Positions 4,289 through 34,952 are shown, counted from the stretch's first letter. The stretch is DNA of 64,000 nt from Patescibacteria group bacterium (GCA_018829965.1 JAHJTG010000008.1:9314-73313); one strand, 5' to 3'. The notes: generated by a model from the letters alone, not told the origin. Numbers and translations are program-made.

Positions 4289-5650
4289 ATGGCAAAGCAA
4301 GAACTCCAAGAAAAACTTCCTCCCCAAAACATTGAAGCAGAACAAAGCCTGTTAGGCTGTTTGATGTTAGATAAAGACGCCATTATCAAAGTGTCTGATT
4401 TTACCAACGCAGACGACTTCTATAAAGACACTCATAAAGAAATATATCAAGCAATGCTAGAGCTCTACCGAAGAATGGAGCCGATCGACCTTTTATCTGT
4501 AACCAGCCGGCTCCGCGAGAAGGAAGGTTTGGAAAAAATTGGCGGGTCAAGTTATTTAACCTCTTTAATTAACGCTGTTCCAACGGCTACTCATGTTTTA
4601 AATTATGCAAAAATAGTCCGAGCAAAAAAGATTTTAAGAGATTTAATCGGAGCATCAGATGAAATAGGTTTAGCAGCTTTTGATGAAGCAGAGGATGTTG
4701 ATGTTTTATTGGATAAAGCGGAAAAAACAATATTTGGCATCGGGCAAAAATCATTAACACAAAATTTTATTGCGATAAAAGATATACTACCAGATACTTT
4801 TAATAGACTAGACGAACTTTCAAAACATAAAGGCGCTTTAAGGGGACTTCCAACCGGATTCCGCGATTTAGATAATAAGCTATCGGGCTTACAAAAATCA
4901 GACCTGATTATTTTAGCTGCCAGACCAGCTATGGGTAAAACTTCTTTAGCTTTAGATATTGCAAGACAGATAGCAACTAATCAGAAAGTTCCTGTCGGTA
5001 TATTCAGCTTAGAAATGTCTAAAGACCAGCTCGTAGACAGAGTGTTATCCGCCCAATCCGGCGTTGATTCTTGGAAATTAAGGTCGGGTAATCTTTCAGC
5101 TGATGGTCCCGATAATGATTTCACTCTGCTCCAAGAAGCAATGGGTCATTTATCAGAAGCTCCAATATATATTGACGATGCTGGTATGGTGAATATACTG
5201 CAAATGAGAGCAATGGCAAGACGCTTGCAGGCAGAAAAGGGTTTAGGATTACTAATTGTTGATTATCTCCAATTAATGGATTCGACTATTAGAAACTTTT
5301 CAGCCGTTCAGCAAGTAACTGAAATCTCAAAAGCATTGAAAGCTTTAGCGAAAGAATTAAATATTCCCGTCCTAGCAATATCCCAATTATCTAGAGCAGT
5401 TGAAGGTAGAACTCCGTCGATTCCAAGATTATCTGACCTTCGCGAAAGCGGAAGTTTAGAGCAAGATAGCGATGTAGTTTTATTTATTTATCGGGAAGAC
5501 AAATATATGGAAAATCCGGAAAAAAGAAATGTTGCCAAAATCATAATTGCAAAACACAGAAATGGCCCAGTCGGCGAAATTGAGCTATACTTTGACGAAA
5601 ACAGAACAACCTTTAGAAGTTTAGAAAAGGACGAATATGCTACATCATAA
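4289..5650 (+). CDS. dnaB: Replicative DNA helicase
   Basis: PPQNIEAEQSLLGCLML N-terminus, Walker A ARPAMGKTS, IVDYLQL, SQLSR, HRNGP. ATG at 4289 is preferred over the TTG at 4244, which lies in the terminator hairpin. Confidence 0.95.
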   Translation: MAKQELQEKLPPQNIEAEQSLLGCLMLDKDAIIKVSDFTNADDFYKDTHKEIYQAMLELYRRMEPIDLLSVTSRLREKEGLEKIGGSSYLTSLINAVPTATHVLNYAKIVRAKKILRDLIGASDEIGLAAFDEAEDVDVLLDKAEKTIFGIGQKSLTQNFIAIKDILPDTFNRLDELSKHKGALRGLPTGFRDLDNKLSGLQKSDLIILAARPAMGKTSLALDIARQIATNQKVPVGIFSLEMSKDQLVDRVLSAQSGVDSWKLRSGNLSADGPDNDFTLLQEAMGHLSEAPIYIDDAGMVNILQMRAMARRLQAEKGLGLLIVDYLQLMDSTIRNFSAVQQVTEISKALKALAKELNIPVLAISQLSRAVEGRTPSIPRLSDLRESGSLEQDSDVVLFIYREDKYMENPEKRNVAKIIIAKHRNGPVGEIELYFDENRTTFRSLEKDEYATS

Positions 5651-20697: not shown

Positions 20698-21461
20698 CAC
20701 ATAATCTTCTATCACTAGAAGTGTAGACTATATCTTCATCCCGCCTAGCGGGAGTCGGCGTATTATGATGGGTTTAAAGCCACCATCCTTCCTTAAAATA
20801 ATGATTTTAAGAAAAAGTCGTTACGGGGTCATATCTAAAATTTTTAATAATTCTTGCTTTGTTTTCTTTTTCTTGGCTATATAGTTATCCGATTGAATGG
20901 CTATAATATAATTTACTATCTTTTTTAATTCGTTTTTTGTTAAACAATTTTTCCTTTTCTTAGAAAAAAGACAAACAGCTTTATATAGTGCTTTCGCCTG
21001 CTTTTGTTTAAAACGAATAAAAGGTATTAAATCTTTTAGGATATTTTCTATTTGCTTGAATCCATTTATTCTTAATTCACTCATTCCGTCGTTTCTTTGA
21101 GAAAAATATCCTATACCAAGTTTTTTCTTTATCCAATGGAGTGGTTTTTCGTGACGACTATCTTGATAAAAACAGATAGTAGCCATTAAGCGCCAATTTG
21201 TTTTACCATCTTTGCGCTTCTTAATTTGAAGCATTAAGCTTCCGTCTCCATCGAGAAAACCTGCGATATAAGCTAAATTTATTTTAGATTGACTTCCCAC
21301 GGTATTATCTTAATAATTATAATTTCTGGTCCTCAAGTAAATTGTACCATAATTAATGGACCGATTGCAATTATGGTTATCAACGAACCAGATATATTAA
21401 GGTTTCACCGTTATTAGCCGAATTGTCATCGTGGATTACTCCACGAAGTAGCAAATTTCTT
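20698..21461 (-). mobile_element. Group I intron in the 23S sarcin-ricin loop
   Basis: Exons rejoin as CCCUAGU|ACGAGAGGACCGG. The intron follows U and ends in G. It contains AAUACCGUGGGAAG, CCCCGUAA.., and GAUAUAGUCU (S element). Confidence 0.85.
20821..21300 (-). CDS. LAGLIDADG homing endonuclease, single-motif (I-CreI-like, presumably homodimeric); GTG start
   Basis: LAYIAGFLDGDGSL near the N-terminus; 159 aa; lies wholly inside the intron. Confidence 0.9.
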   Translation of the reverse strand: MGSQSKINLAYIAGFLDGDGSLMLQIKKRKDGKTNWRLMATICFYQDSRHEKPLHWIKKKLGIGYFSQRNDGMSELRINGFKQIENILKDLIPFIRFKQKQAKALYKAVCLFSKKRKNCLTKNELKKIVNYIIAIQSDNYIAKKKKTKQELLKILDMTP

Positions 21462-21523
21462 ACTAGGGTCAGAGCCTCTCAAAACTCTACGATCGCGGTA
21501 GATAAGGACCAACCTGTCTCACG

Positions 21524-22214
21524 CATATTTGTCATTTATTACTAAATGTATGGACTATACCACTACCCAAATTAATTGGGTAATCGACGTTTTAGCCGCC
21601 GTTAGGCGACTCCGACCGATTAAGGTCAAGTCTCTACGGGGTCGATGTATACACCTTTCGATTCTTTGAATAATTTAATTCACGAAAAGTATCAATTAAT
21701 TTAGCAAGTTTATTAAAATCTTTCTGGCATTTAACTTTACTTTTTTGAACAATAATTTTTTTCAGGAGATTTATTTGAGCTTTCTTCATTAATACATACG
21801 GGCCAACGAGTCCGATAAATTTATTTATCCCCTCTTGGGTCCCAATAATATATTCGAGAATTCCATCTTTTCTAACCCTTAAATATCCTAAATTAATTAA
21901 AGCACAAACTTTAGCAAAATTATTTTGGTTTTTCTGTGATTGGAATAACACAATGTAATTTACAACTTGGAAACCATACTTATAAGTTTTGTTTGGTTTT
22001 AGTTGCGCATATACACTACCATCCCCATCAAGAAATCCAGCCAAATATGATCTTTGTGTTTGCGAAATTAATTTTTTCATACACGACTTCCCTCGGTATT
22101 ATCCTATCATACGACAGATTATAATGAAAGGACTTCACCGATATGAGTCGATTTATTCACTGTAATATTACTATTACAGGCCGCCTAGCTTGTTAACAGA
22201 TCAAGCTTTAGTCG
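21524..22214 (-). mobile_element. Group I intron in 23S domain V (after ~U2593, the I-CreI-type site)
   Basis: Exons rejoin as GGGUUCAAACCGU|CGUGAGACAGGUUGG. Core elements AAUACCGAGGGAAG, CCCCGUAGAGACUUGAC, GGUAUAGUCC. Confidence 0.85.
21634..22080 (-). CDS. LAGLIDADG homing endonuclease, I-CreI family
   Basis: SYLAGFLDGDGSVYAQLKPNKTYKYGFQV aligns by eye with I-CreI YLAGFVDGDGSIIAQIKPNQSYKFKHQL; 148 aa. Confidence 0.9.
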   Translation of the reverse strand: MKKLISQTQRSYLAGFLDGDGSVYAQLKPNKTYKYGFQVVNYIVLFQSQKNQNNFAKVCALINLGYLRVRKDGILEYIIGTQEGINKFIGLVGPYVLMKKAQINLLKKIIVQKSKVKCQKDFNKLAKLIDTFRELNYSKNRKVYTSTP

Positions 22215-22307
22215 ACGGTTTGAACCCAGCTCACGTAACACTTTAATTGGCGAACAGCCAAACCCTTGGGAGCGGCTTCACCCCCAGGATGTGTTGAGCC
22301 GACATCG

Positions 22308-22592
22308 CTGTCGGTAATTTTTCTCTCCTTACAGAGAGGTTCGGACTATATCTTCACCCTTTCTCAATAAGAAAGGGGCTGGCGTGTTAGCTCTCCAATT
22401 TTTTGGAGAACTCCGACTATTAAAAGTCAAGTCTCTACAGGGTTATAACCCAATCTTTTTAAGAATTGAGTTAAACTTCCCACGGTATTATCGTTTAGTT
22501 TTACTAATTTTACCATATGAACTAAGTACGATTCCACCGTTATAAGCCAGATTTTTGGTATAGCATTACTGCTATAGCACCCCGATTTGTTA
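22308..22592 (-). mobile_element. ORF-less group I intron in 23S domain V (after ~U2500) with a homing-endonuclease-gene relic
   Basis: Exons rejoin as GUUCGGCACCU|CGAUGUCGGCUC. Keeps AAUACCGUGGGAAG, CCUGUAGAGACUUGAC, GAUAUAGUCC. Only an 18-codon remnant (MGSLTQFLKRLGYNPVET*) lies between them. Confidence 0.8.
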
Positions 22593-23209
22593 AGGTGCCG
22601 AACAGAGCCGTCGCTATGGACGCTCGGGCTCTACCAGCCTGTTATCCCCGGAGTAGCTTTTGGTTGATGATCTTTCGCGGTTCTAATAACCACGATCGGT
22701 TCACTAAGTTCTGGTTTCCCAACTGCGCGACATATCCGTCTTGCAGTAAAGCCGGCATTTGGCTTTGCCCTATCGCTCCGATTTCCATCCGGAGCTAGCC
22801 GACCTTATAAACGCCTCCATTACCTTTTAGGAGGCAAGTGCCCCACTTAAACTGCCCATTAAACACTGTCTCCGCCTAAGGCGGATTAGAATCAGGGTTT
22901 TTAAAGGATGGTGTTTCATCGGCGACTCCACCCTGTCCGAAAACAAGGTTTCAAAGTCTCCCATCTACGCTACGCATTAAAAACCAAAACTCAATATCTA
23001 ACTACAGTAAAGCTTCCGGGGTCTTTCCGTCTAGCCGCGATTAACCGGCATCTTCACCGGTATTGCATTTTCACCGGGCTCCTCGTTGAGACAGTTCTCT
23101 AGTCGTTAAGCCATTCATGCGGGCCGGAACTTACCCGGCAAGGGATTACGCTACCTTTGGACGGTTATAGTTACCGCCGACGTTCACTGGTGCTTCAATC
23201 AATGAGCCC

Positions 23210-23320
23210 CACTCCGCTCCTTACTTCGTAAGAGCTTCGAAGGGGCAGGTATTCTTTTTTTCAGAATACTTGTCCTGCGTAGCTTTTTTTACGAAACAAA
23301 AAGCGAAGTAGGACCCTCAA
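23210..23320 (-). repeat. 23S hairpin insertion 1 (domain IV, ~E. coli 1860 region)
   Basis: ~110 extra nt relative to E. coli, with nested hairpins (caggtattc-ttttttt-cagaatacttg). Confidence 0.6.
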
Positions 23321-23427
23321 CTTTAACATTCCAGCACTGGTCAGGCTTCACCCCCTATACATCCTCTTACGAGTTAGCAGAGAGCTGTGTTTTTGATAAA
23401 CAGTCGCTAGAGATACGTTAGCTGCGT

Positions 23428-23572
23428 CCCACCGCACCTCGCTATGCTCGGTACTACCGCGGATTAACACGGATTTTAACTGATTAACACGGATAAAATA
23501 TCCGTATGAATCCAGTCGTATCCGCATGTATCCGTGGTACCAAACGCAGTGAGGTACGGTAGGAAGGCCATA
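23428..23572 (-). repeat. 23S hairpin insertion 2 (variable helix ~E. coli 1730)
   Basis: Outer arms cctcgctatgctcgg / ccaaacgcagtgagg enclose CGGAT-rich modules (family I, also at 38245-38300). Confidence 0.7.
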
Positions 23573-24712
23573 TTGCGAACTTACGGCCGCTTTTTTGCCG
23601 AGTTCCTTAACGAGGAATCACCCGTTCATCTTGGCACACTTACGCCGACCCACCTGTGTCGGTTTACGGTACGGTTCCCATTTTTTTAACCCTACGAGCT
23701 TTTCTAGACAACGCGCTCATCCGAATCGCCAGTGCCGAAGCACCAACTTTTCTCATTCCTTAGATTACTCCTAAGAACAAGAACATAAATCCAATAATTT
23801 GCTCGGACTACTGTGTTGTGTCACTCTTCAGAAAAAAATGGAAGGGACGGAATATTAACCGTCTAACCATTAGGTACGCCTTTCGGCTTCCCCTTAGGAC
23901 CGCCTAACCCTTGGCTGATTGCCATTGCCAAGGAACCCTTGGGTTTTCGATGTCCCGGTATTTCACCGAGATTGCGGTTACTCATGCCAACATTCTCTCT
24001 TCTTAACGCTCCACCAGACCTCACAGTCTAGCTTCGCAGCGATAAGAATGCTCTCCTACCACGCATAAAAACCTGAGTTTCTATGCATCCATATCTTCGG
24101 TATTAAGCTTTAGTCCCGATGAATCTTCGGCGCACTTTGCCTATATAGGACAGTGAGTTGTTACACACTCTTTAAAAGATAGCTACCTCTAAGCTAACTT
24201 CCTGCCTGTAAAGGGCAAAATACTTCCTTAATCTACACTTAGCTTAATTTTGGGACCTTAGATGATGATCTGGACTGTTCTCCTTACGACCATGGAGCTT
24301 AGCCCCCACAGTCTAACTGCCTTTTTGACGATGCTGGTATTCGGAGTTTAATTAGAATATCTGAGCGAAGCCCAAGAAATTCTATTTAGTGCTCTACCCC
24401 CAGCACCTAAACAAAAGACGCTAGCCCTAAAGCTATGTCGGAGAGAACCAGCTATTACCAAGCTCGATTAGCTTATCACTTCTTACCACAGGTCATCCCA
24501 GAGTATTGCACGGCTCAAGGGTTCGGACCTCCCCCGCTCTTTCGAGAGGGTTCATCCTGCCCATGGCAAGCTCGCCTGGCTTCGGGTCTCAACCACTCAG
24601 CTTAATTGTTTGCGCTATTAACGCTCGCTTTCGCTATGCCTCCACCCCGTAAGGGTTTAGACTAGCTGAGTAACTGAACTCGTTGGCTCGTTCTGCAAAA
24701 AGCACGCCATCA

Positions 24713-24898
24713 CCAGCCACATCTCGCTGCGCTCGATGTGTCTGGAAACCCTAAATCCTAAATCCGAAATCCTAAACAATAACTAAAATCCAAAATCAAA
24801 AACTTATTTTAAATTTGAAATTTAGAATTTGGAATTTGTTTAGAGTTTCGTGTTTAGTGCTTAGAATTTCCGCATCGAACAAAGTGAGATGCGGCCAG
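24713..24898 (-). repeat. 23S hairpin insertion 3 (helix 25 region, ~E. coli 540)
   Basis: Outer arms catctcgctgcgctcgatg / catcgaacaaagtgagatg enclose inverted heptamer arrays of family C. Confidence 0.7.
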
Positions 24899-25286
24899 CT
24901 CTGACTCGTTGTAAGCAAATGGTTTCAGGTTCTATTTCATCGGGGTCGCCCCCCTACTTTTCACCTTTCCCTCACGGTACTGGTTCACTATCGGTAATAT
25001 TGAGTATTTAGCCTTGGCCGTATAGTTCGGCCTGATTCCTGCCAGGTTATCATTCCCGACAGTACTTAAGTAAAATAGCAAGGAGCGTAAAGTCGTTTTC
25101 GTCTACAGGACTATTACCTTCTATGGTCACCCTTTCCAGGGTTATTTGACTAACGAAAAATTTATTCTTGCAGAGCAAAAATAAATTTACACTTTACCAA
25201 AATGTTCTCCCTCGGATAGAATCCAGCACTCTTTAACGTTTCAAAAAGTACTGGATGCTCCCGACGCTAAATCCTTGCAACCCCAA

Positions 25287-25425
25287 TCGCTCGCGCCTCG
25301 CTATGCTCGTCGCTTCGCTCTCCTACCAATTACGAATTTTTTCGAATTACGAATATTCGTAATTAGTTTAAATTGGTAATTCGTAGGAAGAGTAAGTGCC
25401 GAACGCAGTAAGGCACGAACGAATG
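25287..25425 (-). repeat. 23S hairpin insertion 4 (domain I, ~E. coli 270 region)
   Basis: Outer arms gcctcgctatgctcg / cgaacgcagtaaggc enclose ACGAAT modules of family B. Confidence 0.7.
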
Positions 25426-25471
25426 GTTTGGGCTCTTCCCTTTTCGCTCGCCACTACTAAGGGAATAACTG

Positions 25472-25747
25472 GTCCTACATCTCACAAATTCCGCTAAATT
25501 TAGAAACGAAATAATGCGCTAAATTCAAGACGCGATGACGAAACGCATAAGTGAAACGATGCGTTGAGGAAGAGCCTCGCAGAAGTTAGCCATTATTTCG
25601 CTTCCCTTTCGGGCGGGCGAATTCTGGACATATTCTTTGTTGCTCGTCGCTCACGTATCGCGTTGCTTATACGCTGTCGCTCCTCGCGTCGCGAATCTGT
25701 CGCAGAATTCGCTTCGCTAAATTAGTGCAATTTGTGAGATGCAGGAC
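25472..25747 (-). repeat. 23S insertion 5: 276-nt element with 19-bp terminal inverted repeats (domain I, ~E. coli 215)
   Basis: gtcctacatctcacaaatt ... aatttgtgagatgcaggac (18/19 complementary), with an internal gcgaattctg/cagaattcgc hairpin. No ORF and no group I core. Confidence 0.75.
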
Positions 25748-26333
25748 ATTTGTTCTCTTTTCCTCTGGGTACTGTGATGTTTCGCTTCCCCAGGTCTACC
25801 CCTAACCTTGCGGTCAGGTAATCCCGTTCTGCGGGATTGGGTTGCCCCATTCAGAAACCTCCGGATCAAAGGTTGCTAGCCACCTCCCCGAAGCTTATCG
25901 CAGGCACGCCACGTCTTTCATCGCCTCAATATTCCAAGGCATCCACCATTTGCCTATAAAATTATTTTCTTTGCGTAAGTTTATTCAACAATATAAATAC
26001 TGCTGAATGAATAGATACAGATTTTAGATATCTATTACTATTATATTTTTAGATGATTCTTTACTCTGTTAAAAAAAGACCCCTGTCTAAAGTTTAACAG
26101 AGTGGCCTAATTATATCTTTTTAAAAAAAGCAAGATTATAATTAGGGTTGTATTTTCAAAGTTCTTGATAAATATACTATTCTTAAAAAATTAAAAACCG
26201 CCTAGTTAAAGCGGTCCATCAGACATATACCCGCCTGCATCGCCTGTGGCGAAAGCCACTGCGGGCAGGCAAAAACTCGGAGTTTAACCGCTTCTTTTTC
26301 TAAAAATGGTTTTAATATTTATCATGTAAGGTT

Positions 26334-26362
26334 ATATTATTCTATAAATAAAAACGTGTCAA
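26334..26362 (-). promoter_or_regulatory. Candidate sigma70-type promoter for the 23S-5S unit
   Basis: Minus strand reads TTGACA-17 nt-TAATAT, ~360 nt upstream of the 23S 5' end and upstream of the processing stem. Confidence 0.45.
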
Positions 26363-26499
26363 GCCTTTCACCCTTTAAAAGAAGGTGTAGGGCACAGACC
26401 ATTGTCCTCCTGACGCGAAACTGGATCAATAATTTATGATATTATATACAAAATCTGTCACACAATATTGGGAGACCCGACCTCCCAATTAAATTAATT

Positions 26500-26533
26500 G
26501 AAAACAAAGCCCGGTCGCCTTAGGCGACCGGGC
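26500..26533 (-). terminator. Rho-independent terminator after the 26560-27240 gene
   Basis: gcccggtcgcc-taa-ggcgaccgggc hairpin followed (minus strand) by uuuguuuu. Confidence 0.7.
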
Positions 26534-26559
26534 TAATGTTTTCAATACTGAAAATTTAT

Positions 26560-27240
26560 CTATTTAATCTTTCTCTTTAAGTTCTCAATTGCTTGAGCTG
26601 CAGCATCTTTTCCACCTAAACCGAAAGCCAACATAACCGAACCGGCAATAGCGGCAACAATACCATAAACTATACCCTTGTATAGAATCTGGACTAAATC
26701 TGATTTTGGTAATAATTGATCTAAGATCATGAATATTAAGAAAATCCAAATTGTCCATCTTACGATAGAGGCTGCTAAATGAGCGTAACCGATTTTCATT
26801 TTCTCAACTGTTGCTCTTACTAACTTTTCTACGATATCAGCAATAACTACACCGACTACAAAAATTAAAACAGCGATAATGATGTTTGGGATATAGTTTA
26901 AGATATCCCTTAGAAGTTCTCCAAATTTAGTTAAATTTAGAATATCAACTGTTAATAATAATGTGACGATTACAAATATCCATTTAACGATAGCTCCAAT
27001 AAAAGCAGACGGATCCACTTTTATATCAGCTTTCTCAATGGCTTTCTGCCAACCTTCTTTTTCAAAAAGACGGTTGAATTTTAGTCCCTTCAAAAGTTCG
27101 GTTATAAATCTGCCGATTCCGACAGAGATGATATAGCCGATAACGAAGACAATTATTGCTATTATAAGTTGAGGAAGAAACGAAACCAATTCTTTAAGAA
27201 ATGGTTGTATAATTGTTACGTACCATTCTGGTGTTACCAT
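26560..27240 (-). CDS. Polytopic membrane protein (repeated TM-helix type, possibly mechanosensitive-channel-associated)
   Basis: ~6 TM helices with internal repeats; no catalytic motif. Confidence 0.5.
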   Translation of the reverse strand: MVTPEWYVTIIQPFLKELVSFLPQLIIAIIVFVIGYIISVGIGRFITELLKGLKFNRLFEKEGWQKAIEKADIKVDPSAFIGAIVKWIFVIVTLLLTVDILNLTKFGELLRDILNYIPNIIIAVLIFVVGVVIADIVEKLVRATVEKMKIGYAHLAASIVRWTIWIFLIFMILDQLLPKSDLVQILYKGIVYGIVAAIAGSVMLAFGLGGKDAAAQAIENLKRKIK

Positions 27241-27411
27241 ATTTATTTTAGGTTTAATTATCGATTTATTAATAAATAATTCGACCTTTATAAATTAGGC
27301 TTCTTGTCTGCCTGCGGTAGATCTCCCAAAGGGAGACAACCAGCCTAATCGTTAAACATTATTTTATTATGTGCTTATCTGCCTAAGAATCAACCCCTTA
27401 TGTGGATAATT

Positions 27412-28500
27412 CTATCCATGCTTTATCTCAATCACATCTCCGTCTTGAATGATATATTCCTTTCCTTCTGTTCTTATTAATCCCCTCTCTCTTGCCTTAG
27501 AAAAACCGCCGGCTTCAATCAAATCTTTCCAATTAATAACCTCGGCTTTAACAAACGTCTTTTCAAAATCGCTATGGATTACTCCTCCTGCTTGCGGAGC
27601 CATCTCCCCTCTTTTTATTGTCCAAGCACGCGTCTCATCTGTCCCAGTTGTCAAAAAAGTAATTAGACTTAACAGCTCGTAAGATTTTTTAACTAAAATA
27701 TCTGTTTCTGACTCTGGAGGAAATCCCAAAGAGATTCTTTCTTCTTTTAAGAAACCTGCTGTTTCAAATTCTGAAGCGATGTCTACTATTAAATACGGCC
27801 AACTTGTCTCGCCAGAATTGGCTGGGTTATTCTTTTTAAAAACCTCTAAAGTATTTTGATCCACCTCCTCATCTTTTCCGTTTAAAAGATACAGCCTTGG
27901 TTTTAATGTTAATAATTGAAAACTATCCAAAATTTTCTTCTCTTCATCTGTAAAGCTTTGCTCAACTAATATTTTTTCTTCAGTTAAAAATTCTTTTGCT
28001 TTTTTTAATACTTCCATTTCCTTAATCGCCTCCTTCCTATTAGCCCTTACATCACCCTCCAAGCCATGTATTCTTTTCGTAATAGTATCTAAATCTTTTA
28101 AAATTAATTCTACGTCTAAGATCCCTTTATCTCTTAATGGACTTATTGATTCTTGCGTGTTAATAATATCGGAATTAGAAAAAGCGCGAAGGATATATAT
28201 GATTGCATCTGTTTCACGAATATTTGCTAAAAACTTGTTTCCCAAGCCTTCGCCTTCGCTCGCCCCTTTTACCAAGCCGGCGATATCAACAAACTCAATG
28301 GTTGTATAAATCTTCTTTGCAGAACTAGTTAATTCAGCTAATTTATCAACTCTTTCGTCTGGAACCAAAACAACCCCTACATTAGGGTCAATTGTACAAA
28401 AAGGATAATTAGCAATATCCACTTCCTTTTTGGTTAATGTTTTAAATAGAGTGGACTTACCTACATTCGGTAATCCTACAATGCCTATACTAAGTGCCAT
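27412..28500 (-). CDS. ychF: Ribosome-binding ATPase YchF
   Basis: G1 GLPNVGKST, NYPFCTIDPN, DIAGLV.GAS.G.GLGN.FL, C-terminal TGS-like domain. Confidence 0.95.
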   Translation of the reverse strand: MALSIGIVGLPNVGKSTLFKTLTKKEVDIANYPFCTIDPNVGVVLVPDERVDKLAELTSSAKKIYTTIEFVDIAGLVKGASEGEGLGNKFLANIRETDAIIYILRAFSNSDIINTQESISPLRDKGILDVELILKDLDTITKRIHGLEGDVRANRKEAIKEMEVLKKAKEFLTEEKILVEQSFTDEEKKILDSFQLLTLKPRLYLLNGKDEEVDQNTLEVFKKNNPANSGETSWPYLIVDIASEFETAGFLKEERISLGFPPESETDILVKKSYELLSLITFLTTGTDETRAWTIKRGEMAPQAGGVIHSDFEKTFVKAEVINWKDLIEAGGFSKARERGLIRTEGKEYIIQDGDVIEIKHG

Positions 28501-28529
28501 TTATAAATTTTTAAAATTATTTTTTTATA

Positions 28530-28883
28530 TTAAAACCTATAAATATTGCCCTCCGATGGAGTTTCAATATTAGTATTTGCTAAAACTTTTTTTATTCTCT
28601 CTGCTTCATTTTCAATTATTTCCCCGTCGTATTCTCCACTATGACTATGCGCTCCACTATTTTCATATGAAGCAAACTTCTGATCTAAATGAAGATTGAA
28701 GATAAACTCGTTATGGTCCTCATCTTTTTTTATAAACACATGGAATCTCGGGTAACCATATCCCCTGCTTAAATCCTTAACAAGGCTTTCTTCGCCGTTC
28801 TCGCTTTTTCTGCCAATCTTATATCCAATCTTCTTCGCCATATTTACAATAGTTTCGTTAGTGTTTTTAACTATAAATTTCAT
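28530..28883 (-). CDS. Hypothetical protein (117 aa; start moved to Met66 of the tracked ORF)
   Basis: The ORF-track N-terminus reads through tRNA-Ala and repeat DNA. MKFIVKN... begins 8 nt downstream of the tRNA. Confidence 0.5.
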   Translation of the reverse strand: MKFIVKNTNETIVNMAKKIGYKIGRKSENGEESLVKDLSRGYGYPRFHVFIKKDEDHNEFIFNLHLDQKFASYENSGAHSHSGEYDGEIIENEAERIKKVLANTNIETPSEGNIYRF

Positions 28884-28891
28884 ATTATTTA

Positions 28892-28962
28892 TGGACCCTG
28901 CGAGAATCGAACTCGCATCTCCTCGTTGCAAACGAGGTGTGCTACCACTATACCAAGGGCCC
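28892..28962 (-). tRNA. tRNA-Ala (anticodon UGC)
   Basis: Acceptor GGGCCCU/AGGGUCC with the G3:U70 identity pair; anticodon stem CCUCG/CGAGG with loop UUUGCAA; T arm GCGAG-UUCGAUU-CUCGC. Confidence 0.85.
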
Positions 28963-28965
28963 ACC

Positions 28966-29060
28966 AAAGCTATCGAGAATCTTCGATTTCTTTCAGAAAT
29001 CGGGACAAATGTCCCGATGGCTGTTGCCATCGCGGATGCTCGATTTTGCTCGGCAAAATC
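28966..29060. repeat. Family A module cluster (GTCCCGAT / TCGAGnATCnTCGA words)
   Basis: atcgagaatcttcgat, tttctttcagaaatcgggac, gtcccgatggctgttgccatcg, cgattttgctcggcaaaatcg: concatenated small hairpins. Confidence 0.75.
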
Positions 29061-29092
29061 GGCAAGGTGTTCTACCACTAAACTAAAGCCCC
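29061..29092 (-). pseudogene. Orphan tRNA 5' half (acceptor strand, U8, D arm, start of anticodon stem)
   Basis: GGGGCUU-UA-GUUU-AGUGGUA-GAAC-A-CCUUG then runs straight into family A repeats. No matching 3' half (CAAGG... AAGCCCC) before tRNA-Ala. Confidence 0.5.
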
Positions 29093-29093
29093 C

Positions 29094-29423
29094 CTAATTT
29101 ATCCCCCAGAATTTTATTATTTGGACATCATCTAACCCCCAAATTCTCATTAGAATAAAATCCTTGAAATCGCTTATAATTATACCCATACTCAAAAAAA
29201 TCAAAACGTATCCAACATATTTTCTGCTTTTTTTAAAAAACAAATAAGATAAACTGATAAATAACAATAACAACCCAAATATCCAATGATGCGGAATCCA
29301 TATTATCTGCCCCCCAATGATATGCCCTATTCTCCCGATAGCATATCCCATAAACACTGCGAAGGTATATATAAAATATTTTATAGACATTATTGCTCTT
29401 AATAATATCTTACCTTTTTCCAA
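29094..29423 (-). CDS. Small membrane protein
   Basis: Three predicted TM helices; 109 aa. Confidence 0.5.
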   Translation of the reverse strand: MEKGKILLRAIMSIKYFIYTFAVFMGYAIGRIGHIIGGQIIWIPHHWIFGLLLLFISLSYLFFKKSRKYVGYVLIFLSMGIIISDFKDFILMRIWGLDDVQIIKFWGIN

Positions 29424-29483
29424 TAGTTTTTCAAGCCAGCAGGCGCAGGATTGCCAAGCACTAATCTACGGATAGTGCTCGGC

Positions 29484-29512
29484 TAAAACAAAAAACCGCA
29501 TTTCACGGTTTT
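29484..29512 (-). terminator. Rho-independent terminator downstream of the 16S gene
   Basis: aaccg-ugaaau-gcgguu hairpin followed by uuuuuguuuu on the minus strand. Confidence 0.6.
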
Positions 29513-29698
29513 TTGTTTTAGTTTCTTAAAGCTGTTTCGAATATCCGATTTTGACGATTTCGTACAGTAGCAAGCTGTATGAAACATTACTTCGGTAAAC
29601 GTTTTAACTTGAAATCCAAATTTAAGACTTCAAATTAAGTCGACAAAAAAATATAAAAAAATTGATCCACGACCAGGTTCCCCTAGCCGTGCCTTGTT

Positions 29699-30477
29699 CA
29701 TGCTATTCCCCTATATCGCTATAAGGCATGGACTATATCATCATCCTTTCACAAAATATTTTTGACTTTACTGGATGGTAAGAATTTACAATTTTAGCAA
29801 ATCTCTCGTGATGTTTAGTAGAAACAAATATTCTCCAATAATCAGGGTCAACTTTTTTACTCGGATTATGGATTTTTCCAGTTTCTATCTTTAAACTTTT
29901 GAGAAGTAACTTTAATTGCTTGATTTTGCTTAAATCCTTTTGGACTAACTGAATATAAAATCTGTCTTTTGTATGAGGAACGCCACCTTCGGCGTCAAAA
30001 AATCCTTTTACATAAAACAATTTTTCATAATAGTTATCCAAATTTATAGGATTAAATTTGAAATCTAAGTCTTTACAAAGTGTCTCTAAAACATACATAT
30101 TTCTATCCTTTCCCTCTTTGTAAATCCATGATTTGCAATTAATTTTACCTAGCAAAATTTGTAAATTTTCCAACCACTGCTTATTTTTCTGGGAGAATCT
30201 AATTCTCTTTCCTTTGTTTAAAGAGGCATCATGAATCGCTCCATTTAAATAAGCTATAATCTCATATTTTGTGGTAGGAGTTCGGCGTGTAGTCTCTGAG
30301 GGGTCAATTCTAATTTTATTAGAACGACTTCCCTGCTGATTGTCTGCACTAGAAACATTTTCACTCATATTATCTTATTATAATATGAGTAGTCCTAGAT
30401 TCACAGATGTTCCAGCATACAGCCAACTTTTTCTCTAAGGGTTACCCCTATGAGGTCGCAACATGCAGATTGCACTG
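29699..30477 (-). mobile_element. Group I intron in 16S after U1498 (decoding centre, inside the 1492R primer site)
   Basis: Exons rejoin as GGGGCUAAGUCGU|AACAAGGCACGG. ACAAUCAGCAGGGAAG and CCCCUCAGAGACUAC lie 5' of most of the ORF; GAUAUAGUCC lies 3' of it. Confidence 0.85.
29733..30368 (-). CDS. LAGLIDADG homing endonuclease (double-motif)
   Basis: IIAYLNGAIHDAS and VKGFFDAEGGV motifs. The tracked N-terminus reads through intron core elements, so the true start is uncertain. Confidence 0.8.
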   Translation of the reverse strand: MSENVSSADNQQGSRSNKIRIDPSETTRRTPTTKYEIIAYLNGAIHDASLNKGKRIRFSQKNKQWLENLQILLGKINCKSWIYKEGKDRNMYVLETLCKDLDFKFNPINLDNYYEKLFYVKGFFDAEGGVPHTKDRFYIQLVQKDLSKIKQLKLLLKSLKIETGKIHNPSKKVDPDYWRIFVSTKHHERFAKIVNSYHPVKSKIFCERMMI

Positions 30478-30893
30478 ACGACTTAGCCCCTCTTATTAAG
30501 CCCAGCGTAGGATCCCGTAAACGGGACACTTCGGCTGTTCCTAACTCGCTTGGCTTGACGGGCGGTGAGTACAAGACTCAGGAACATATTCATCGCCGCA
30601 TAGCTGATCGGCGATTACTAGCGATTCCAACTTCATGAGGGCGGGTTTCAGCCCTCAATCCGAACTAAGACCGATTTTGGTGGGATTTGCTTCACCTTGC
30701 GGTTTTGCGTCCCATTGTCTCGGCCATTGTACCACGTGTGCGGCCCAAGTCATCAAAGGGCCATGCTGATTTGGCGTCATCCTCGCCTTCCTCCCAGTTG
30801 TCCCGGGCAGTCCCCTATGACATATAAAACATAGGGCAAGGGTTGCGCTCGTTACCCGAATTAACGGTACGTCTCAAGACACGAGCTGACGAC

Positions 30894-31713
30894 CATATTG
30901 ATCTATAATTTCTTATAGTATGGACTATACCATCTTCCATCCGCCTGAGGCGGATTAGGAGACCAGCGTTTAATGATAGGTTATATCATTAAGTTTTCTC
31001 GCCTTTAGAGAAAACTAAGTCTCTACGGGGTATAAAAACTAATTTTTGTAATTTTATCGAATAATTATAAATTTTTTCTAAAAATTCTCTTGCCTGGTAT
31101 CGCGAGATATAAAGGCAAAATGTCTTTGCTGTTTTGTAGTAATAAATTTTTGTATTACTAATTCCTATCCTTAAAAGAAGACTTTTATCAATTTCTGCTT
31201 CATTTTTATTTCCATATACTATCCTGCAATCATTTCTAAAGTTCTTATCGATTGAACCGTCTCCATCAAACCTTCCTGCAAAATATGCATTAATTAAATT
31301 ATCTTTTTCTAATTTAATTAAATTATTTCGTGCCTCTCTAAATTCTCTCAGGAATGGACGGCTATTAACAAAAATATGATTTCTATTAAATTTTATCCTA
31401 TCTTCAGAAAAAAACTTCAATAGAAAATCTTTAAACTTGGCTATCAAAGCAGGGTCTACATTACTTAGACCAATCGAACTTGACCACCAATAACTATCTG
31501 CACACCAAAGTCCTAAGATATAAGAATCTTCTTCTCTAGAGAAAAAATTACAAAAATTAGTTTTTATACTTCCCACGGTATTGCCATTAATTATTATATT
31601 TTAACATAATAATTAGAAGGTTTCACCGTTATGAGCTGGTTTTTTACCGTATTAAAATAAATTAGTACGGGGCATTTCACTAAAAATTACTTTTTAGTGG
31701 GTCGTTATAACAC
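30894..31713 (-). mobile_element. Group I intron in 16S helix 34 (after ~U1060)
   Basis: Exons rejoin as GGUGCUGCAUGGUU|GUCGUCAGCUCGUG. Core elements AAUACCGUGGGAAG, CCCCGUAGAGACUUAG, GGUAUAGUCC. Confidence 0.85.
30989..31576 (-). CDS. LAGLIDADG homing endonuclease (double-motif); GTG start
   Basis: YILGLWCADSYWW and AYFAGRFDGDGSI motifs; 195 aa. Confidence 0.85.
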   Translation of the reverse strand: MGSIKTNFCNFFSREEDSYILGLWCADSYWWSSSIGLSNVDPALIAKFKDFLLKFFSEDRIKFNRNHIFVNSRPFLREFREARNNLIKLEKDNLINAYFAGRFDGDGSIDKNFRNDCRIVYGNKNEAEIDKSLLLRIGISNTKIYYYKTAKTFCLYISRYQAREFLEKIYNYSIKLQKLVFIPRRDLVFSKGEKT

Positions 31714-31981
31714 AACCATGCAGCACCTGTTCTGCTGCCTTGTGGGGGGCCATCCTTTCAGACGGCTTTCAACAGAATTTCTAGACTTGGTAAGGTTCTT
31801 CGTTTGTTGTCGAATTAAGCCACATGGTCCACCGCTTGTGTGAGTCCCCGTCTATTTCTTTGAGTTTTAGCCTTGCGGCCGTACTTCCCAGGCGGATCAC
31901 TTAACGCATTAGCTTCGCCACTGACAGGGTCGACACTGCCAATAGCCAGTGATCATCGTTTACAGCGTGGACTACAAGGGT

Positions 31982-32961
31982 CATCTTGTAGTTTTTTCTT
32001 ATTTCTTCGATTACTCGAAGGATCGGACTATATCATTTTCTGAAGTTTTTCCATTTGTTTTTCTTTTCAGTAATATATTTTTCTACTACTGCTTTAGAAA
32101 AACCTGTCAATTCACTAACTTCAGAAATCCAGCGTTGTTGTAAATCATGGTCTTTGTAAATAATCAAGACCTTCGGTAGCATTTCTGCCACTTTTATATG
32201 CGGCATTATAATCCGCAAAAACTTCTTTAACTCTTCGCTTGAGCGAATCCATAAACGATAATATATTCTTTCTTCATTCATCCATTTTCTAGTTATTTTA
32301 CCAATATGAACATTTATGTCCCATACTTTTTTTAAGTAATTAGACAATAATTTTTGCTCTTCATAAGAAAAACAATCTGTACAAAATACTCCCTTCCTTC
32401 CATTACCTATTATAGATCCATCATCAAGCCACCATATCGCTAAAGATAAAGGAGTTATTGCATTAAGCCACTTACGGCTAATTTTAAATACTCCTTTTTT
32501 ATGAGTTAAATCATATAACTCTGTTAATTCTGGTATTGCTACGCTTTGATATCGCAATTTTTGACCGCCAAATCCATCTTTTATTTCTGATTTCCAAAAA
32601 TAGTTTTCCCCGGAAATTTCCTTTAATTCATTTACTTTCCAGAAAAAATATTCCTTTTGCTTGATAGAATGACGGAAAGAAAAACGAGCATTTTTATAAT
32701 TATCGTTAATCTTCAGCGATCCATCGCCTAGCAAAGAACCAAGAATAATATCTTTGCAATTTTTAGACAAAAATGAATTTTTCATTTTCTATCTTTTTGA
32801 CTTACATAGTCTCTACGGGGTCGCTATCTTAAAAAGACGCGACTTCCCTCGGGATTATCCATCCGACTAAAATGGGTTTCCCCGATACAGCTAGATGCTC
32901 ACCATATTGTCACCAATATGGAGGACACCATTTAGTCTGTTAATTTCACAGACAAGGATTT
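31982..32961 (-). mobile_element. Group I intron in the 16S 790 loop (after U793, inside the 806R primer site)
   Basis: Exons rejoin as GGAUUAGAU|ACCCUUGUAGUCCACGC. AAUCCCGAGGGAAG and CCCCGUAGAGACUAUG precede the ORF; GAUAUAGUCC follows it. Confidence 0.85.
32033..32785 (-). CDS. LAGLIDADG homing endonuclease (double-motif, with C-terminal helical extension)
   Basis: IILGSLLGDGSL and LAIWWLDDGSI motifs; 250 aa. Confidence 0.9.
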   Translation of the reverse strand: MKNSFLSKNCKDIILGSLLGDGSLKINDNYKNARFSFRHSIKQKEYFFWKVNELKEISGENYFWKSEIKDGFGGQKLRYQSVAIPELTELYDLTHKKGVFKISRKWLNAITPLSLAIWWLDDGSIIGNGRKGVFCTDCFSYEEQKLLSNYLKKVWDINVHIGKITRKWMNEERIYYRLWIRSSEELKKFLRIIMPHIKVAEMLPKVLIIYKDHDLQQRWISEVSELTGFSKAVVEKYITEKKNKWKNFRK

Positions 32962-33239
32962 ATCTAATCCTTTTTGATCCCCACGCTTTCATTCCTCAGT
33001 GTCAGAATCGTCCCAGCTAACTGCCTTCGCTTTTGGTGTTCCCGACGATATCAACGGATTTCACCCCTACACCGTCGGTTCCGTTAGCCTCTAACGTCCT
33101 CTAGTCAAATAGTATCTTTAGCAATTCAAAGGTTAAGCCGATGAGTTTTAACTAAAGACTTATTTAACCACCTACGAATCCTTTATGCCCAGTAAATCCG
33201 GGTAACGCTCGGGGGTTCTGTATTACCGCTCCTGCTGGC

Positions 33240-34072
33240 CGAATAACGAAAAATTATTCGTTTTGGACTATATCATCACCTCGCTTCAGCGAGGGTTCGG
33301 CGTCTGATGATGGGTTCAAATACCACCATCTCATCCACTTAAGGATTCAGTCTCTGAGGGGTTAAAGCACAATAAGGTAATCTTTTTGAAAAACACGAAA
33401 TAATATTCGGAGAGATCAAATTTAAAAATTTATCTCTTCCTTTTGCCCCGATATATATTTCAGGATATCTTTTGCCTCTGCAAAGAGGCGTATGAATATT
33501 GGATTCTATTCCGAAGTTTTTCTTTAAAACCTCAACCAATAATTTATTCTCTTCGACGCTAAATGCATTTGTGCAAAAAGAAAAATTATAATGGTCTTTC
33601 GGTCTGAAATCTAAACTTCCATCGTCCATATACCATACAGCTAAACTTAATGGAGAAATTAATAACTCCTGAATGTTTTTTGGAACAATTTTCTTTCCAT
33701 TTTTATAAAATATTTCTTTGTATCTAGAGATATCTTCTAAAAATTTCGTTTGAAAATACCATTGCTTATTATCTTTCCTCTGTTTTGGCGAACTTTTGCA
33801 TAAATTTTCAAAGCAAGAATATAACCAGAATACATATTCTTTATGTGCTTCTGATTGTTTTATTCTCAAGCATTTTCCATCTATCCAAGCATCGCCCAAA
33901 AGAGTGCCGATAATAATTTCGTGTTGTTTCTTTGTCATTACCTAATTATACTCAACTTCCCTGCTGATTGTCACATTAAAATTATCAACTTTGTGATAAA
34001 GGAGCATTAATGTGCTTTCCAGCATATAAGCCGAATTTTGATTCTGCGCCCGCCAACCTTCATGGGTTGGCC
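33240..34072 (-). mobile_element. Group I intron in the 16S 530 loop (after U516, inside the 515F primer site)
   Basis: Exons rejoin as CCUAAUUCUGU|GCCAGCAGGAGCGGUAAUAC. Core elements ACAAUCAGCAGGGAAG, CCCCUCAGAGACUGAAUCC, GAUAUAGUCC. Confidence 0.85.
33339..33938 (-). CDS. LAGLIDADG homing endonuclease (double-motif)
   Basis: IIIGTLLGDAWI and LAVWYMDDGSL motifs; 199 aa. Confidence 0.9.
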   Translation of the reverse strand: MTKKQHEIIIGTLLGDAWIDGKCLRIKQSEAHKEYVFWLYSCFENLCKSSPKQRKDNKQWYFQTKFLEDISRYKEIFYKNGKKIVPKNIQELLISPLSLAVWYMDDGSLDFRPKDHYNFSFCTNAFSVEENKLLVEVLKKNFGIESNIHTPLCRGKRYPEIYIGAKGRDKFLNLISPNIISCFSKRLPYCALTPQRLNP

Positions 34073-34371: not shown

Positions 34372-34498
34372 CTCCTCCTTCGCTCTTCATTCCATTCAGA
34401 GCTACGACGGACGAGCCTTGCTTTACGCTTGCAAAGTATAAATACCTTGCGGCTTTGTCCATCTGAAGCTTTTTATGAAATAAAAAGCGAAAGAGGAG
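34372..34498 (-). repeat. 16S hairpin insertion (~E. coli 190-220 region)
   Basis: ~125 extra nt bounded by ctcctccttcgc / gcgaaagaggag inverted arms; no ORF. Confidence 0.65.
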
Positions 34499-34952
34499 AC
34501 TATCGGAAATTAGCCAATCTTTCGACTGGTTATGTCCGTCTTTGAGGTTGGTACCTACGTGTTACTAACCCGTTCGCCACTGACCCTTGCGGGTCCGTTT
34601 GACTTGCATGCCTTATCCACGTTACCAGCGTTCACCCTGAGCTAGAATCAAACTCTCAAAAAATTGAAGTTTGATTTAAAAGAAAATAAATTCTCTTTTG
34701 AATCTAGTTACAATGTGATAGCTTTATTCGAAACAACTTTAAAAAACTAATTATTTATCCAGTTTAAATAGGTTATTTTAAACTGGGGTGCATTATTAAT
34801 TTATCAATGTACGGGGTATTTGTTTTGAAAAACAAATCCCGAAGATATCCATCTTTACTTAAAGATAAATATCTTCGGGGTTCATTCAACCATTTTAAAT
34901 TTTAATTCTCCATCAATTTATATTTTTTATTTATTTTTTATATGCAATTACT

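Follow-up and report, generated by a model that had tools for sequence, protein, structure and literature searches.

Seven group I introns in the rRNA genes of a Patescibacterium

A stretch of 64,000 nucleotides (nt) from a Patescibacteria group bacterium (GCA_018829965.1, JAHJTG010000008.1:9314-73313), referred to here as the window, contains a 16S and a 23S ribosomal RNA (rRNA) gene, both on the minus strand, which are interrupted by seven group I introns. Alignment to the E. coli rrsB and rrlB genes, with the junctions read directly, places the insertions after positions 516, 793, 1060 and 1498 of 16S rRNA and after positions 2500, 2593 and 2656 of 23S rRNA (E. coli numbering). In all seven cases the 5' exon ends with U and the intron with G. 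Seven introns in 16S and 23S rRNA had already been recognised in the first-pass annotation of this DNA, and the outer limits given there, 20698 and 34072, are exact intron ends. It had also proposed that a single intron lineage spread ectopically to seven rRNA targets within this one genome. The evidence presented here leads us to a different reading, to which we assign a probability of about 85%: each intron belongs to a separate site-specific family of intron and endonuclease that is widespread in Patescibacteria.

In 16S rRNA, the S516 intron follows U516 and spans 34072..33240 on the minus strand (833 nt), with the conserved Q, R and S words of its core at 33969..33956, 33361..33349 and 33274..33266. 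The S793 intron (32961..31982, minus strand, 980 nt) follows U793 and has Q at 32856..32843, R at 32820..32808, the P3' strand at 32135..32129 and S at 32034..32026. After U1060 lies the S1060 intron (31713..30894, minus strand, 820 nt; Q 31582..31569, R 31030..31018, S 30931..30923) and after U1498 the S1498 intron (30477..29699, minus strand, 779 nt; Q 30341..30328, S 29739..29731), in which R (30303..30291) is directly followed by P3'. The 23S introns are likewise on the minus strand. The L2500 intron (22592..22308, 285 nt; Q 22489..22476, R 22442..22430, S 22352..22344), inserted after U2500, is devoid of an open reading frame (ORF). The L2593 intron (22214..21524, 691 nt; Q 22100..22087, R 21641..21629, S 21561..21553) follows U2593, which is the I-CreI site, and the L2656 intron (21461..20698, 764 nt; Q 21306..21293, R 20828..20816, S 20734..20726) follows U2656 in the sarcin-ricin loop.

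A common class of catalytic cores

For comparison, loci were fetched with two endonuclease probes; 80 were kept from a scan of one genome per species with the L2656-type probe and 80 from a metagenome scan with the S516-type probe. The exons between neighbouring introns can be as short as 62-93 nt and are then missed by BLAST chaining of spliced rRNA. Same-site introns were identified by exon anchors of 13-25 nt, which yielded 27 introns for S516, 8 for S793, 5 for S1060, 15 for S1498, 15 for L2500, 24 for L2593 and about 70 for L2656. The comparison of cores covers the 95-97 nt of the catalytic core and about 140 introns from other Patescibacteria.

Written as degenerate patterns, Q (AATMMSSWGGGAAGT), R (CCCYKYARMGACT) and S (GRTATAGTCY) have exactly seven matches apiece in the 64 kb, one in every intron, where 0.00, 0.03 and 0.29 matches, respectively, are expected by chance. 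The earlier statement that all seven introns carry near-identical words is correct insofar as every intron has one Q/R/S set. In several introns, however, the words deviate by one or two bases, namely in L2500 (CCCUGUAGAGACU), L2656 (CCCCGUAACGACU and GAUAUAGUCU), L2593 and S1060 (GGUAUAGUCC in both) and S793 (AAUCCCGAGGGAAGU). The words quoted in the first-pass annotation are in essence the classical P/Q/R/S consensus together with a GGG/CCC P6, and the type-b words of the window, UAUGCUGGAA, AAUCAGCAGG, UCAGAGACUACA and GAUAUAGUCC, likewise correspond in essence to the classical consensus for P, Q, R and S.

Five core blocks (P3-J3/4-P4, J5/4-P4'-P6, P6'-J6/7-P7, P3' and J8/7-P7') were extracted from each intron by means of sequence anchors and the condition that P3 and P4 pair. 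In the resulting set of 116 distinct cores, drawn from the window and other genomes, 99.5% of the core-pair cells are paired, as opposed to 32-44% with slid partners. Twelve of the 21 core pairs change on both sides, and the observed covariation score was reached by none of 500 shuffles. P3 and P4 exhibit many compensatory changes, and covariation extends to pairs that played no part in the extraction: one pair of the P6 extension occurs as UA, CG or AU and the next as CG, UA, AU or GC. In all 116 cores the outer P7 positions hold G-C, A-U or U-A; the L2656 intron of the window has A-U there rather than G-C. The cores of all seven introns are genuine group I ribozymes and fall into a single, broad IA-like structural class, in which P3, P4, P6 and P7 covary. 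In addition, the L2500 intron reaches 65.9 bits with the Rfam model Intron_gpI (RF00028), which is above the gathering score of 50 bits, and 60.3 bits with a full P1-P9 alignment; the cmscan alignment of this intron shows the P1 pairing GCACCU/GGGGUGC.

The helices P7.1 and P7.2 between P7 and P3' are the hallmark of subgroup IA. Five of the introns (S516, S1060, L2500, L2593 and L2656) possess spacers of 38-54 nt at this position, which by eye read as two hairpins. Both helices are absent from the S1498 intron, the spacer of which measures 2 nt. In the S793 intron the region is taken by the ORF, and ORF-less introns at the same site (loci L159 and L093) have both helices there.

How far this core class extends is illustrated by phage introns. 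The core of the T4 td intron, a member of IA2, is 0.47-0.59 identical to the window cores. When viral contigs were searched for the P6-R signature, 55 loci (L163-L217) turned up, none of them similar to rRNA, and 32 of these gave cores with 0.76-0.92 identity to families such as S1498 and S516. Five of the seven window introns have no genome-mate as close as the best viral core, and for L2593 and L2656 the two are tied; without the pattern columns the viral advantage is kept for the five and slightly reversed for L2593 and L2656. Since cores from phage genes are as close to the window introns as their genome-mates or closer, the shared words mark a broad IA-type class. They exceed the generic P/Q/R/S consensus only modestly.

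Of the viral loci, which lie on large phage contigs, one (L180, 1100..1970) has an intron that splits an apparent ribonucleotide-reductase gene and bears an HNH-like ORF in P8. In another (L209, ~5480..5620) the intron lies within or beside an apparent capsid-protein ORF; both are judged from ORF translations only. When the viral core is translated in one frame it reads ..NQQGS..PSETTRR.., a peptide identical to the one at the N-terminus of the S1498 ORF in the window.

Endonuclease genes and their placement in the ribozyme

The LAGLIDADG ORFs annotated in six of the introns are borne out by Pfam matches above the curated cut-off in every case. LAGLIDADG_2 is encoded by the S516 ORF (33339..33938; 199 amino acids (aa), Pfam E 1.4e-40), the product of which is I-SceI-like (E 4e-15), and by the S793 ORF (32033..32785; 250 aa, E 3.6e-39). 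LAGLIDADG_3 is found in the S1060 ORF (30989..31576; 195 aa, E 1.1e-12), for which a search of solved structures gave no relative, and in the S1498 ORF (29733..30368; 211 aa, E 1.7e-16), for which solved structures gave marginal matches to I-DmoI only. Single-motif LAGLIDADG_1 proteins are specified by the L2593 ORF (21634..22080; 148 aa, E 9.8e-10), which is I-CreI/I-MsoI-like and matches I-CreI over its full length (E 3.5e-19), and by the L2656 ORF (20821..21300; 159 aa, E 2.7e-12). All six lie on the minus strand.

The order Q-ORF-R-S was correctly described for S516, S1060, L2593 and L2656, in which the ORF is situated in P6, and the order Q-R-ORF-S for S793 and S1498. An overlap of the ORF stop with the R word, proposed for the former four, exists in L2593 (UAG) and L2656 (UAA), within CCCCGUAG and CCCCGUAA, respectively, but not in S516 and S1060. 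The ORFs of these two introns continue past R and end 8 and 27 nt beyond it, respectively, in the P7.1/P7.2 region, that of S516 within P7.1 and that of S1060 after reading through P7.1. The S793 ORF starts in the P7.1/P7.2 region; its final ~35 codons include P3' (ACGCUGGAU) and a P8 of 94 nt, and its UGA stop lies in J8/7, that is in the S word. The P8 stem UUCUGAAGUU/AACUUCAGAA is maintained by compensatory changes in the corresponding introns of loci L087 and L104. In S1498 the mechanical ORF start lies upstream of Q. The frame is open from an AUG in the P5 hairpin, crosses Q, P6, R and P3', has its body in P8 and ends in the S word. The start AUGAGUGA is kept in locus L082 and in the ORF-less intron of L102, while L093 has GUGAGUGA there. 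The occurrence of GACGCCGAAGG inside the S1498 ORF was considered as P3' and rejected as a chance match.

In L2656 and S1060 the sole possible start is a GUG in the P4' strand of Q (21300..21292 and 31576..31568), where ACC-GUG-GGA-AGU is read as M-G-S. At its other end the L2656 ORF comprises the P6'/J6/7 strand of R (20826..20821), with ACC-CCG-UAA read as T-P-stop. The residues G2, S3, T158 and P159 of the L2656-type protein are invariant in 29 homologues, which is consistent with a dual constraint on these nucleotides, exerted by RNA and protein alike.

Placement of the ORF is conserved at each site across genomes. It lies in P6 at S516 (21 of 23 same-site introns of other genomes), at S1060 (4 of 5) and at L2656 (67 of 70), where Q and R are mostly 464 nt apart. 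At L2593 and L2500 the introns have the ORF in P6 or none, the L2500 site being represented by nine ORF-less introns and five with a LAGLIDADG_2 gene in P6. S1498 introns of the window type have the ORF in P8, and all four ORF-bearing S793 introns have it between R and P3', in the P7.1/P7.2 region. ORF-less same-site relatives also occur for S1060 (L159, 273 nt) and S1498 (L102, 270 nt). ORF position is a trait of the site family and not of the window genome. The division into P6-type and P8-type loops made in the first-pass annotation holds for S516, S1060, L2593 and L2656 on the one hand and for S1498 on the other; the label P8-type is wrong for S793, because the ORF occupies the P7.1/P7.2 region there across genomes. 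Different LAGLIDADG genes do reside in different loops, with three Pfam families at differing peripheral positions, but their acquisition after a spread in this genome is not supported.

Site families versus relatedness within the genome

The nearest cores of all seven window introns are same-site introns of other Patescibacteria, with 0.86-0.97 identity. Among themselves the window introns share 0.60-0.80 core identity and none is the nearest relative of another; different site families in general are 0.60-0.77 identical. A same-site nearest neighbour was found for 104 of the 116 cores, compared with about 30 expected with shuffled labels. Furthermore, when the 21 pairs of window introns are set against the cross-genome background of pairs from the same sites, the excess identity amounts to +0.010, with a median percentile of 0.54. 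The claim that one lineage spread ectopically to seven targets within one genome is contradicted by these figures.

The endonucleases lead to the same result. Within the genome, S516 and S793 and likewise L2593 and L2656 reach 29% identity, and the similarity of S1060 and S1498 is not significant. With their same-site homologues from the fetched loci the endonucleases share 42-73% identity (S793 59-65%, S1060 50-70%, S1498 42-55%, L2593 up to 73%), as compared to 25-38% for members of the same Pfam family from other sites. For S516, protein databases hold homologues from other Patescibacteria with up to 91% identity. With endonucleases of at most 29% identity in the genome and an ORF position that is kept per site across genomes, the unusual intragenomic diversification suggested in the first-pass annotation is not supported. 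The seven introns are neither mutual nearest relatives nor excessively similar, as paralogues within one genome would be, and cores, endonucleases and ORF placement all follow the insertion site. The shared Q/R/S words and the GGG/CCC P6 represent class-level conservation of the core and are not evidence of recent paralogy here. How widespread such a family can be is seen for L2656: the endonuclease type is encoded in at least 547 species genomes, 3306 homologues of the protein were found, hundreds of them with 65-76% identity and a length of exactly 159 aa, and an intron is present at this site in 63 of 80 related loci.

Several points weigh against this reading. The comparison loci rest on two endonuclease queries only, the core comparison covers just 95-97 nt, few introns are available for comparison at S1060 (4) and S793 (6), and the L2593 set is contaminated with a few introns from neighbouring sites. 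The value of 99.5% paired cells is biased by an extraction that relied on motifs and required P3/P4 pairing. Apart from L2500, the Rfam group I scores stay below 50 bits (S1498 43.4 in its 5' part, L2656 26.6, L2593 21.2 and S1060 14), and the Rfam scan gave no match for the S516 and S793 introns; the sub-threshold scores are explained by ORFs of 450-750 nt that split the cores. Finally, the whole 3' domains of the S516 and L2656 introns in the window are 0.64 identical, a value at the 98.6th percentile of cross-genome S516 x L2656 pairs (maximum 0.66). Two apparent same-genome outliers in other loci, L150 and L041, are likely artefacts, because of the neighbouring-site introns in the L2593 set and because the L2656 entry of L150 probably spans two introns.

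The site S1498 holds two ribozyme types in different genomes (loci L159, L137 and L085 versus L082, L093 and L102). One type is characterised by P4 UGCUG/CAGCA, lacks P7.1/P7.2 and bears its endonuclease gene, a LAGLIDADG_3, in P8. In the other type P4 is UCGGU/ACCGA, and the gene, here a LAGLIDADG_2, is situated in P6. In locus L103, an S516 intron without P7.1/P7.2 has a core that is 0.90-0.92 identical to S1498-type cores. This is likely the outcome of an ectopic move between two 16S sites, in a lineage other than that of the window.

Origin and maintenance of the intron families

The distribution of the introns is best accounted for as follows. The single 16S and 23S genes of this genome from the Patescibacteria, or Candidate Phyla Radiation (CPR), carry seven IA-type introns, each from a site-specific family of its own. 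Judging from sequence, each intron would fold (P1-P9) in the rRNA precursor and self-splice with a guanosine cofactor, which would restore functional rRNA. Each predicted LAGLIDADG enzyme would cleave its cognate rRNA site wherever incoming or sister DNA lacks the intron, and repair would copy the intron into the cut site. Such homing would hold each family to one site and at the same time pass it between lineages.

As to the origin of the families, one possibility, which we hold tentatively and at somewhat worse than even odds, is an ancient radiation, in which an IA-type lineage moved to many rRNA sites early or repeatedly in Patescibacteria, for example by reverse splicing, after which endonucleases locked the copies to their sites and were swapped among loops. 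The core identity between sites (0.60-0.77) exceeds that to T4 td (0.47-0.59), and the families S516 and L2656 have a GAURG..CYAU P7.2 module in common, which also turns up in a few L2500 and L2593 introns. The S516 intron of L103 with its S1498-type core, the two ribozyme types at S1498 with different endonuclease families and loops, and the presence of LAGLIDADG_2 in S516, S793, S1498 and L2500 introns of differing core types point in the same direction, as do closely related endonucleases at different sites, which have been mentioned for CPR (Tsurumaki et al., 2024, PMC11270868). On the other hand, introns in ribonucleotide-reductase and capsid genes of phages are 0.76-0.92 identical, so that the class is not specific to Patescibacteria, and the L2593 site and its I-CreI-like endonuclease are shared with chloroplast and cyanobacterial introns (PMC1995217), which argues for a separate import of at least that family. 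Moreover, a core of 95 nt is too short to resolve deep branching.

A wider reading, which we regard as conceivable though on the whole doubtful, unites the patescibacterial rRNA introns at seven or more sites and a set of phage gene introns in one IA-type superfamily. Its members would have moved repeatedly between sites, as from S1498 to S516, and exchanged endonuclease modules among P6, P7.1/P7.2 and P8, with a GUG start in P4' and stops in J6/7 or J8/7. If true, ribozyme folding and endonuclease translation would be mechanistically coupled.

The resemblance between the 3' parts of the S516 and L2656 introns, to which the first-pass annotation had drawn attention, is real: both contain GAUGGUGG..CCCAUCAU..ACGCCGA. 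It is centred on P7.2, where the two introns are separated by an edit distance of 3. A P7.2 module consisting of GAURG, stem-loop and CYAU is present in many members of both families, and among explicit GAURG..CYAU hairpins, S516 x L2656 pairs from different genomes occur at distances of 1, 2 and 3. As these cross-genome pairs equal or beat the window pair, convergence within a constrained P7.2 module explains the likeness. Alternatively, the two hairpins could have been homogenised by gene conversion in this genome, the remainder of either intron having retained its family identity. The P7.2 of the window S516 intron is indeed only 3 away from that of its L2656 genome-mate as against at least 8 from the best stretch of other S516 introns, the window L2656 P7.2 is closer to the window S516 P7.2 (3) than to other L2656 introns (at least 6), and the high percentile of the 3'-domain identity would fit a local exchange. 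Yet of the 153 explicit S516 x L2656 hairpin pairs, four are within a distance of 3 and three of these four are between different genomes, a stem of ~7 base pairs with a loop on consensus makes convergence plausible, and the flanking P7.1 and P8 are dissimilar in the two introns. We consider gene conversion improbable.

Least tenable is the notion that a founder intron transposed ectopically to seven rRNA sites in this genome and acquired different LAGLIDADG genes thereafter: the one core class with its Q/R/S words and GGG/CCC P6, the 0.75-0.80 identity of S516 and S1498 cores and the P7.2 distance of just 3 can be cited in its favour, but the lack of any nearest relative or excess identity within the genome, endonucleases at or below 29% identity, same-site families with the same ORF placement in many genomes, cross-genome P7.2 distances of 1 and 2, and phage introns that are as close or closer make it very unlikely indeed.

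Comparison with known introns

Insertion sequences and group I introns in rRNA genes of CPR/Patescibacteria were reportedly described by Brown and colleagues in 2015, and a study from 2012 (cited in PMC3984707) is said to have found a bacterial 16S gene with several group I introns, their sites lying near 794 and 1495. Among CPR bacteria, 48% of the 16S genes and 82% of the 23S genes have been found to contain insertions, up to 16 in a single gene, and the group I introns among them encode LAGLIDADG_1, _2 and _3 proteins, use recurrent sites including 2593, 2657 and 1498 and possess endonucleases that cluster by site; there are also hints of ectopic moves (Tsurumaki et al., 2024, PMC11270868). 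Our locus does not differ from these introns in any essential respect. Multiple introns per rRNA gene, the three LAGLIDADG families with LAGLIDADG_3 in 16S only, ORF-less next to ORF-bearing forms at one site and hairpin-type intervening sequences in the 5' half of 23S are common to both. The same paper contains no analysis of ribozyme cores, subgroups or ORF position in the ribozyme, its text does not mention the positions 516, 793, 1060 and 2500, and its supplement lists the sites 16IS4-7 without numeric positions. I-ShaI, a CPR relative that is not among the six window enzymes, was shown to be active there. In the literature that we searched, neither a core phylogeny nor a subgroup assignment came up for rRNA introns of Patescibacteria; tRNA introns of Patescibacteria are nearly all classed as IA (Nakagawa et al., 2026, PMC13011429).

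At a given rDNA position, introns and likewise endonuclease genes are as a rule one another's closest relatives, and ORFs reaching into core elements have been described earlier (Haugen et al., 2007, PMC1995217). I-CreI/I-MsoI enzymes belong to introns at the 23S 2593 site of green-algal chloroplasts, and the chloroplast and cyanobacterial L2593 introns resemble that of the window in rRNA position, in a short P5 and a P7.1/P7.2 extension and in a single-motif LAGLIDADG gene (PMC1995217). Overlap of ORF and core and the presence of several endonuclease-bearing introns in one bacterial rRNA gene are further parallels, whereas at most three introns in one 23S gene were reported there as opposed to seven over both genes in the Patescibacterium (Haugen et al., 2007). 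The phage introns share the core class with its P/Q/R/S words, the signature GGGAAG..CCCC[GU][CU]AGAGACU and ORFs in peripheral loops including P8. Unlike the window introns, they reside in protein-coding genes, and their endonucleases are of the GIY-YIG type (T4 td) or HNH-like (one viral locus, from ORF translation) instead of LAGLIDADG.

The phenomenon as such is already published (Tsurumaki et al., 2024; Haugen et al., 2007). What the present analysis provides is a correction, in that the recurrence of Q/R/S words among several introns of a single genome does not testify to recent transposition within it, and a fully delimited example with seven introns and three LAGLIDADG families. It may be of use for annotating rRNA genes of Patescibacteria, which are fragmented by standard rRNA models, for studying the overlap of endonuclease-coding sequence and ribozyme core, and as a source of new site-specific LAGLIDADG enzymes for universally conserved rRNA sequences, including the sarcin-ricin loop.

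Further features of the rRNA locus

Genes for MreC, YchF, an MscS-like channel and EF-Ts neighbour the rRNA genes in the window. A chloroplast origin of this DNA was considered and rejected, since MreC, YchF and EF-Ts as well as the names of NCBI entries indicate Patescibacteria; YchF and MreC match NCBI proteins of a 'Patescibacteria group bacterium' exactly. The 16S and 23S genes are separated, with tRNA-Ala, the YchF GTPase gene and the MscS-like channel gene in between (26560..29000); the spacer is devoid of tRNA-Ile. The 16S gene contains ~105 extra nt around E. coli positions 181-210 (~34500..34380), which look like an expansion segment and not like an intron. Its 3' end (29672..29650) reads ...GGAUCAAUUUUUUUAUAUU and lacks the anti-Shine-Dalgarno sequence CCUCC. 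Among the fetched loci of other Patescibacteria, roughly every second 16S 3' end is likewise without this sequence (e.g. L082, L093, L109 and L110), and the rest retain CCUCCUUUCU.

In its 5' half, the 23S gene exhibits four more insertions relative to the bacterial large-subunit rRNA model, none of them introns (25748..25470, 25430..25278, ~25230..25130 and 24893..24721, minus strand). At least two of these form long, near-perfect hairpins, one of 186 nt (-75 kcal/mol, z -10.4) and one of 291 nt (-125 kcal/mol, z -10.2). For the hairpin in helix 25 (E. coli ~544), matches in either orientation were found in loci of other Patescibacteria. The insertions of this region resemble intervening sequences of the RNase III type.

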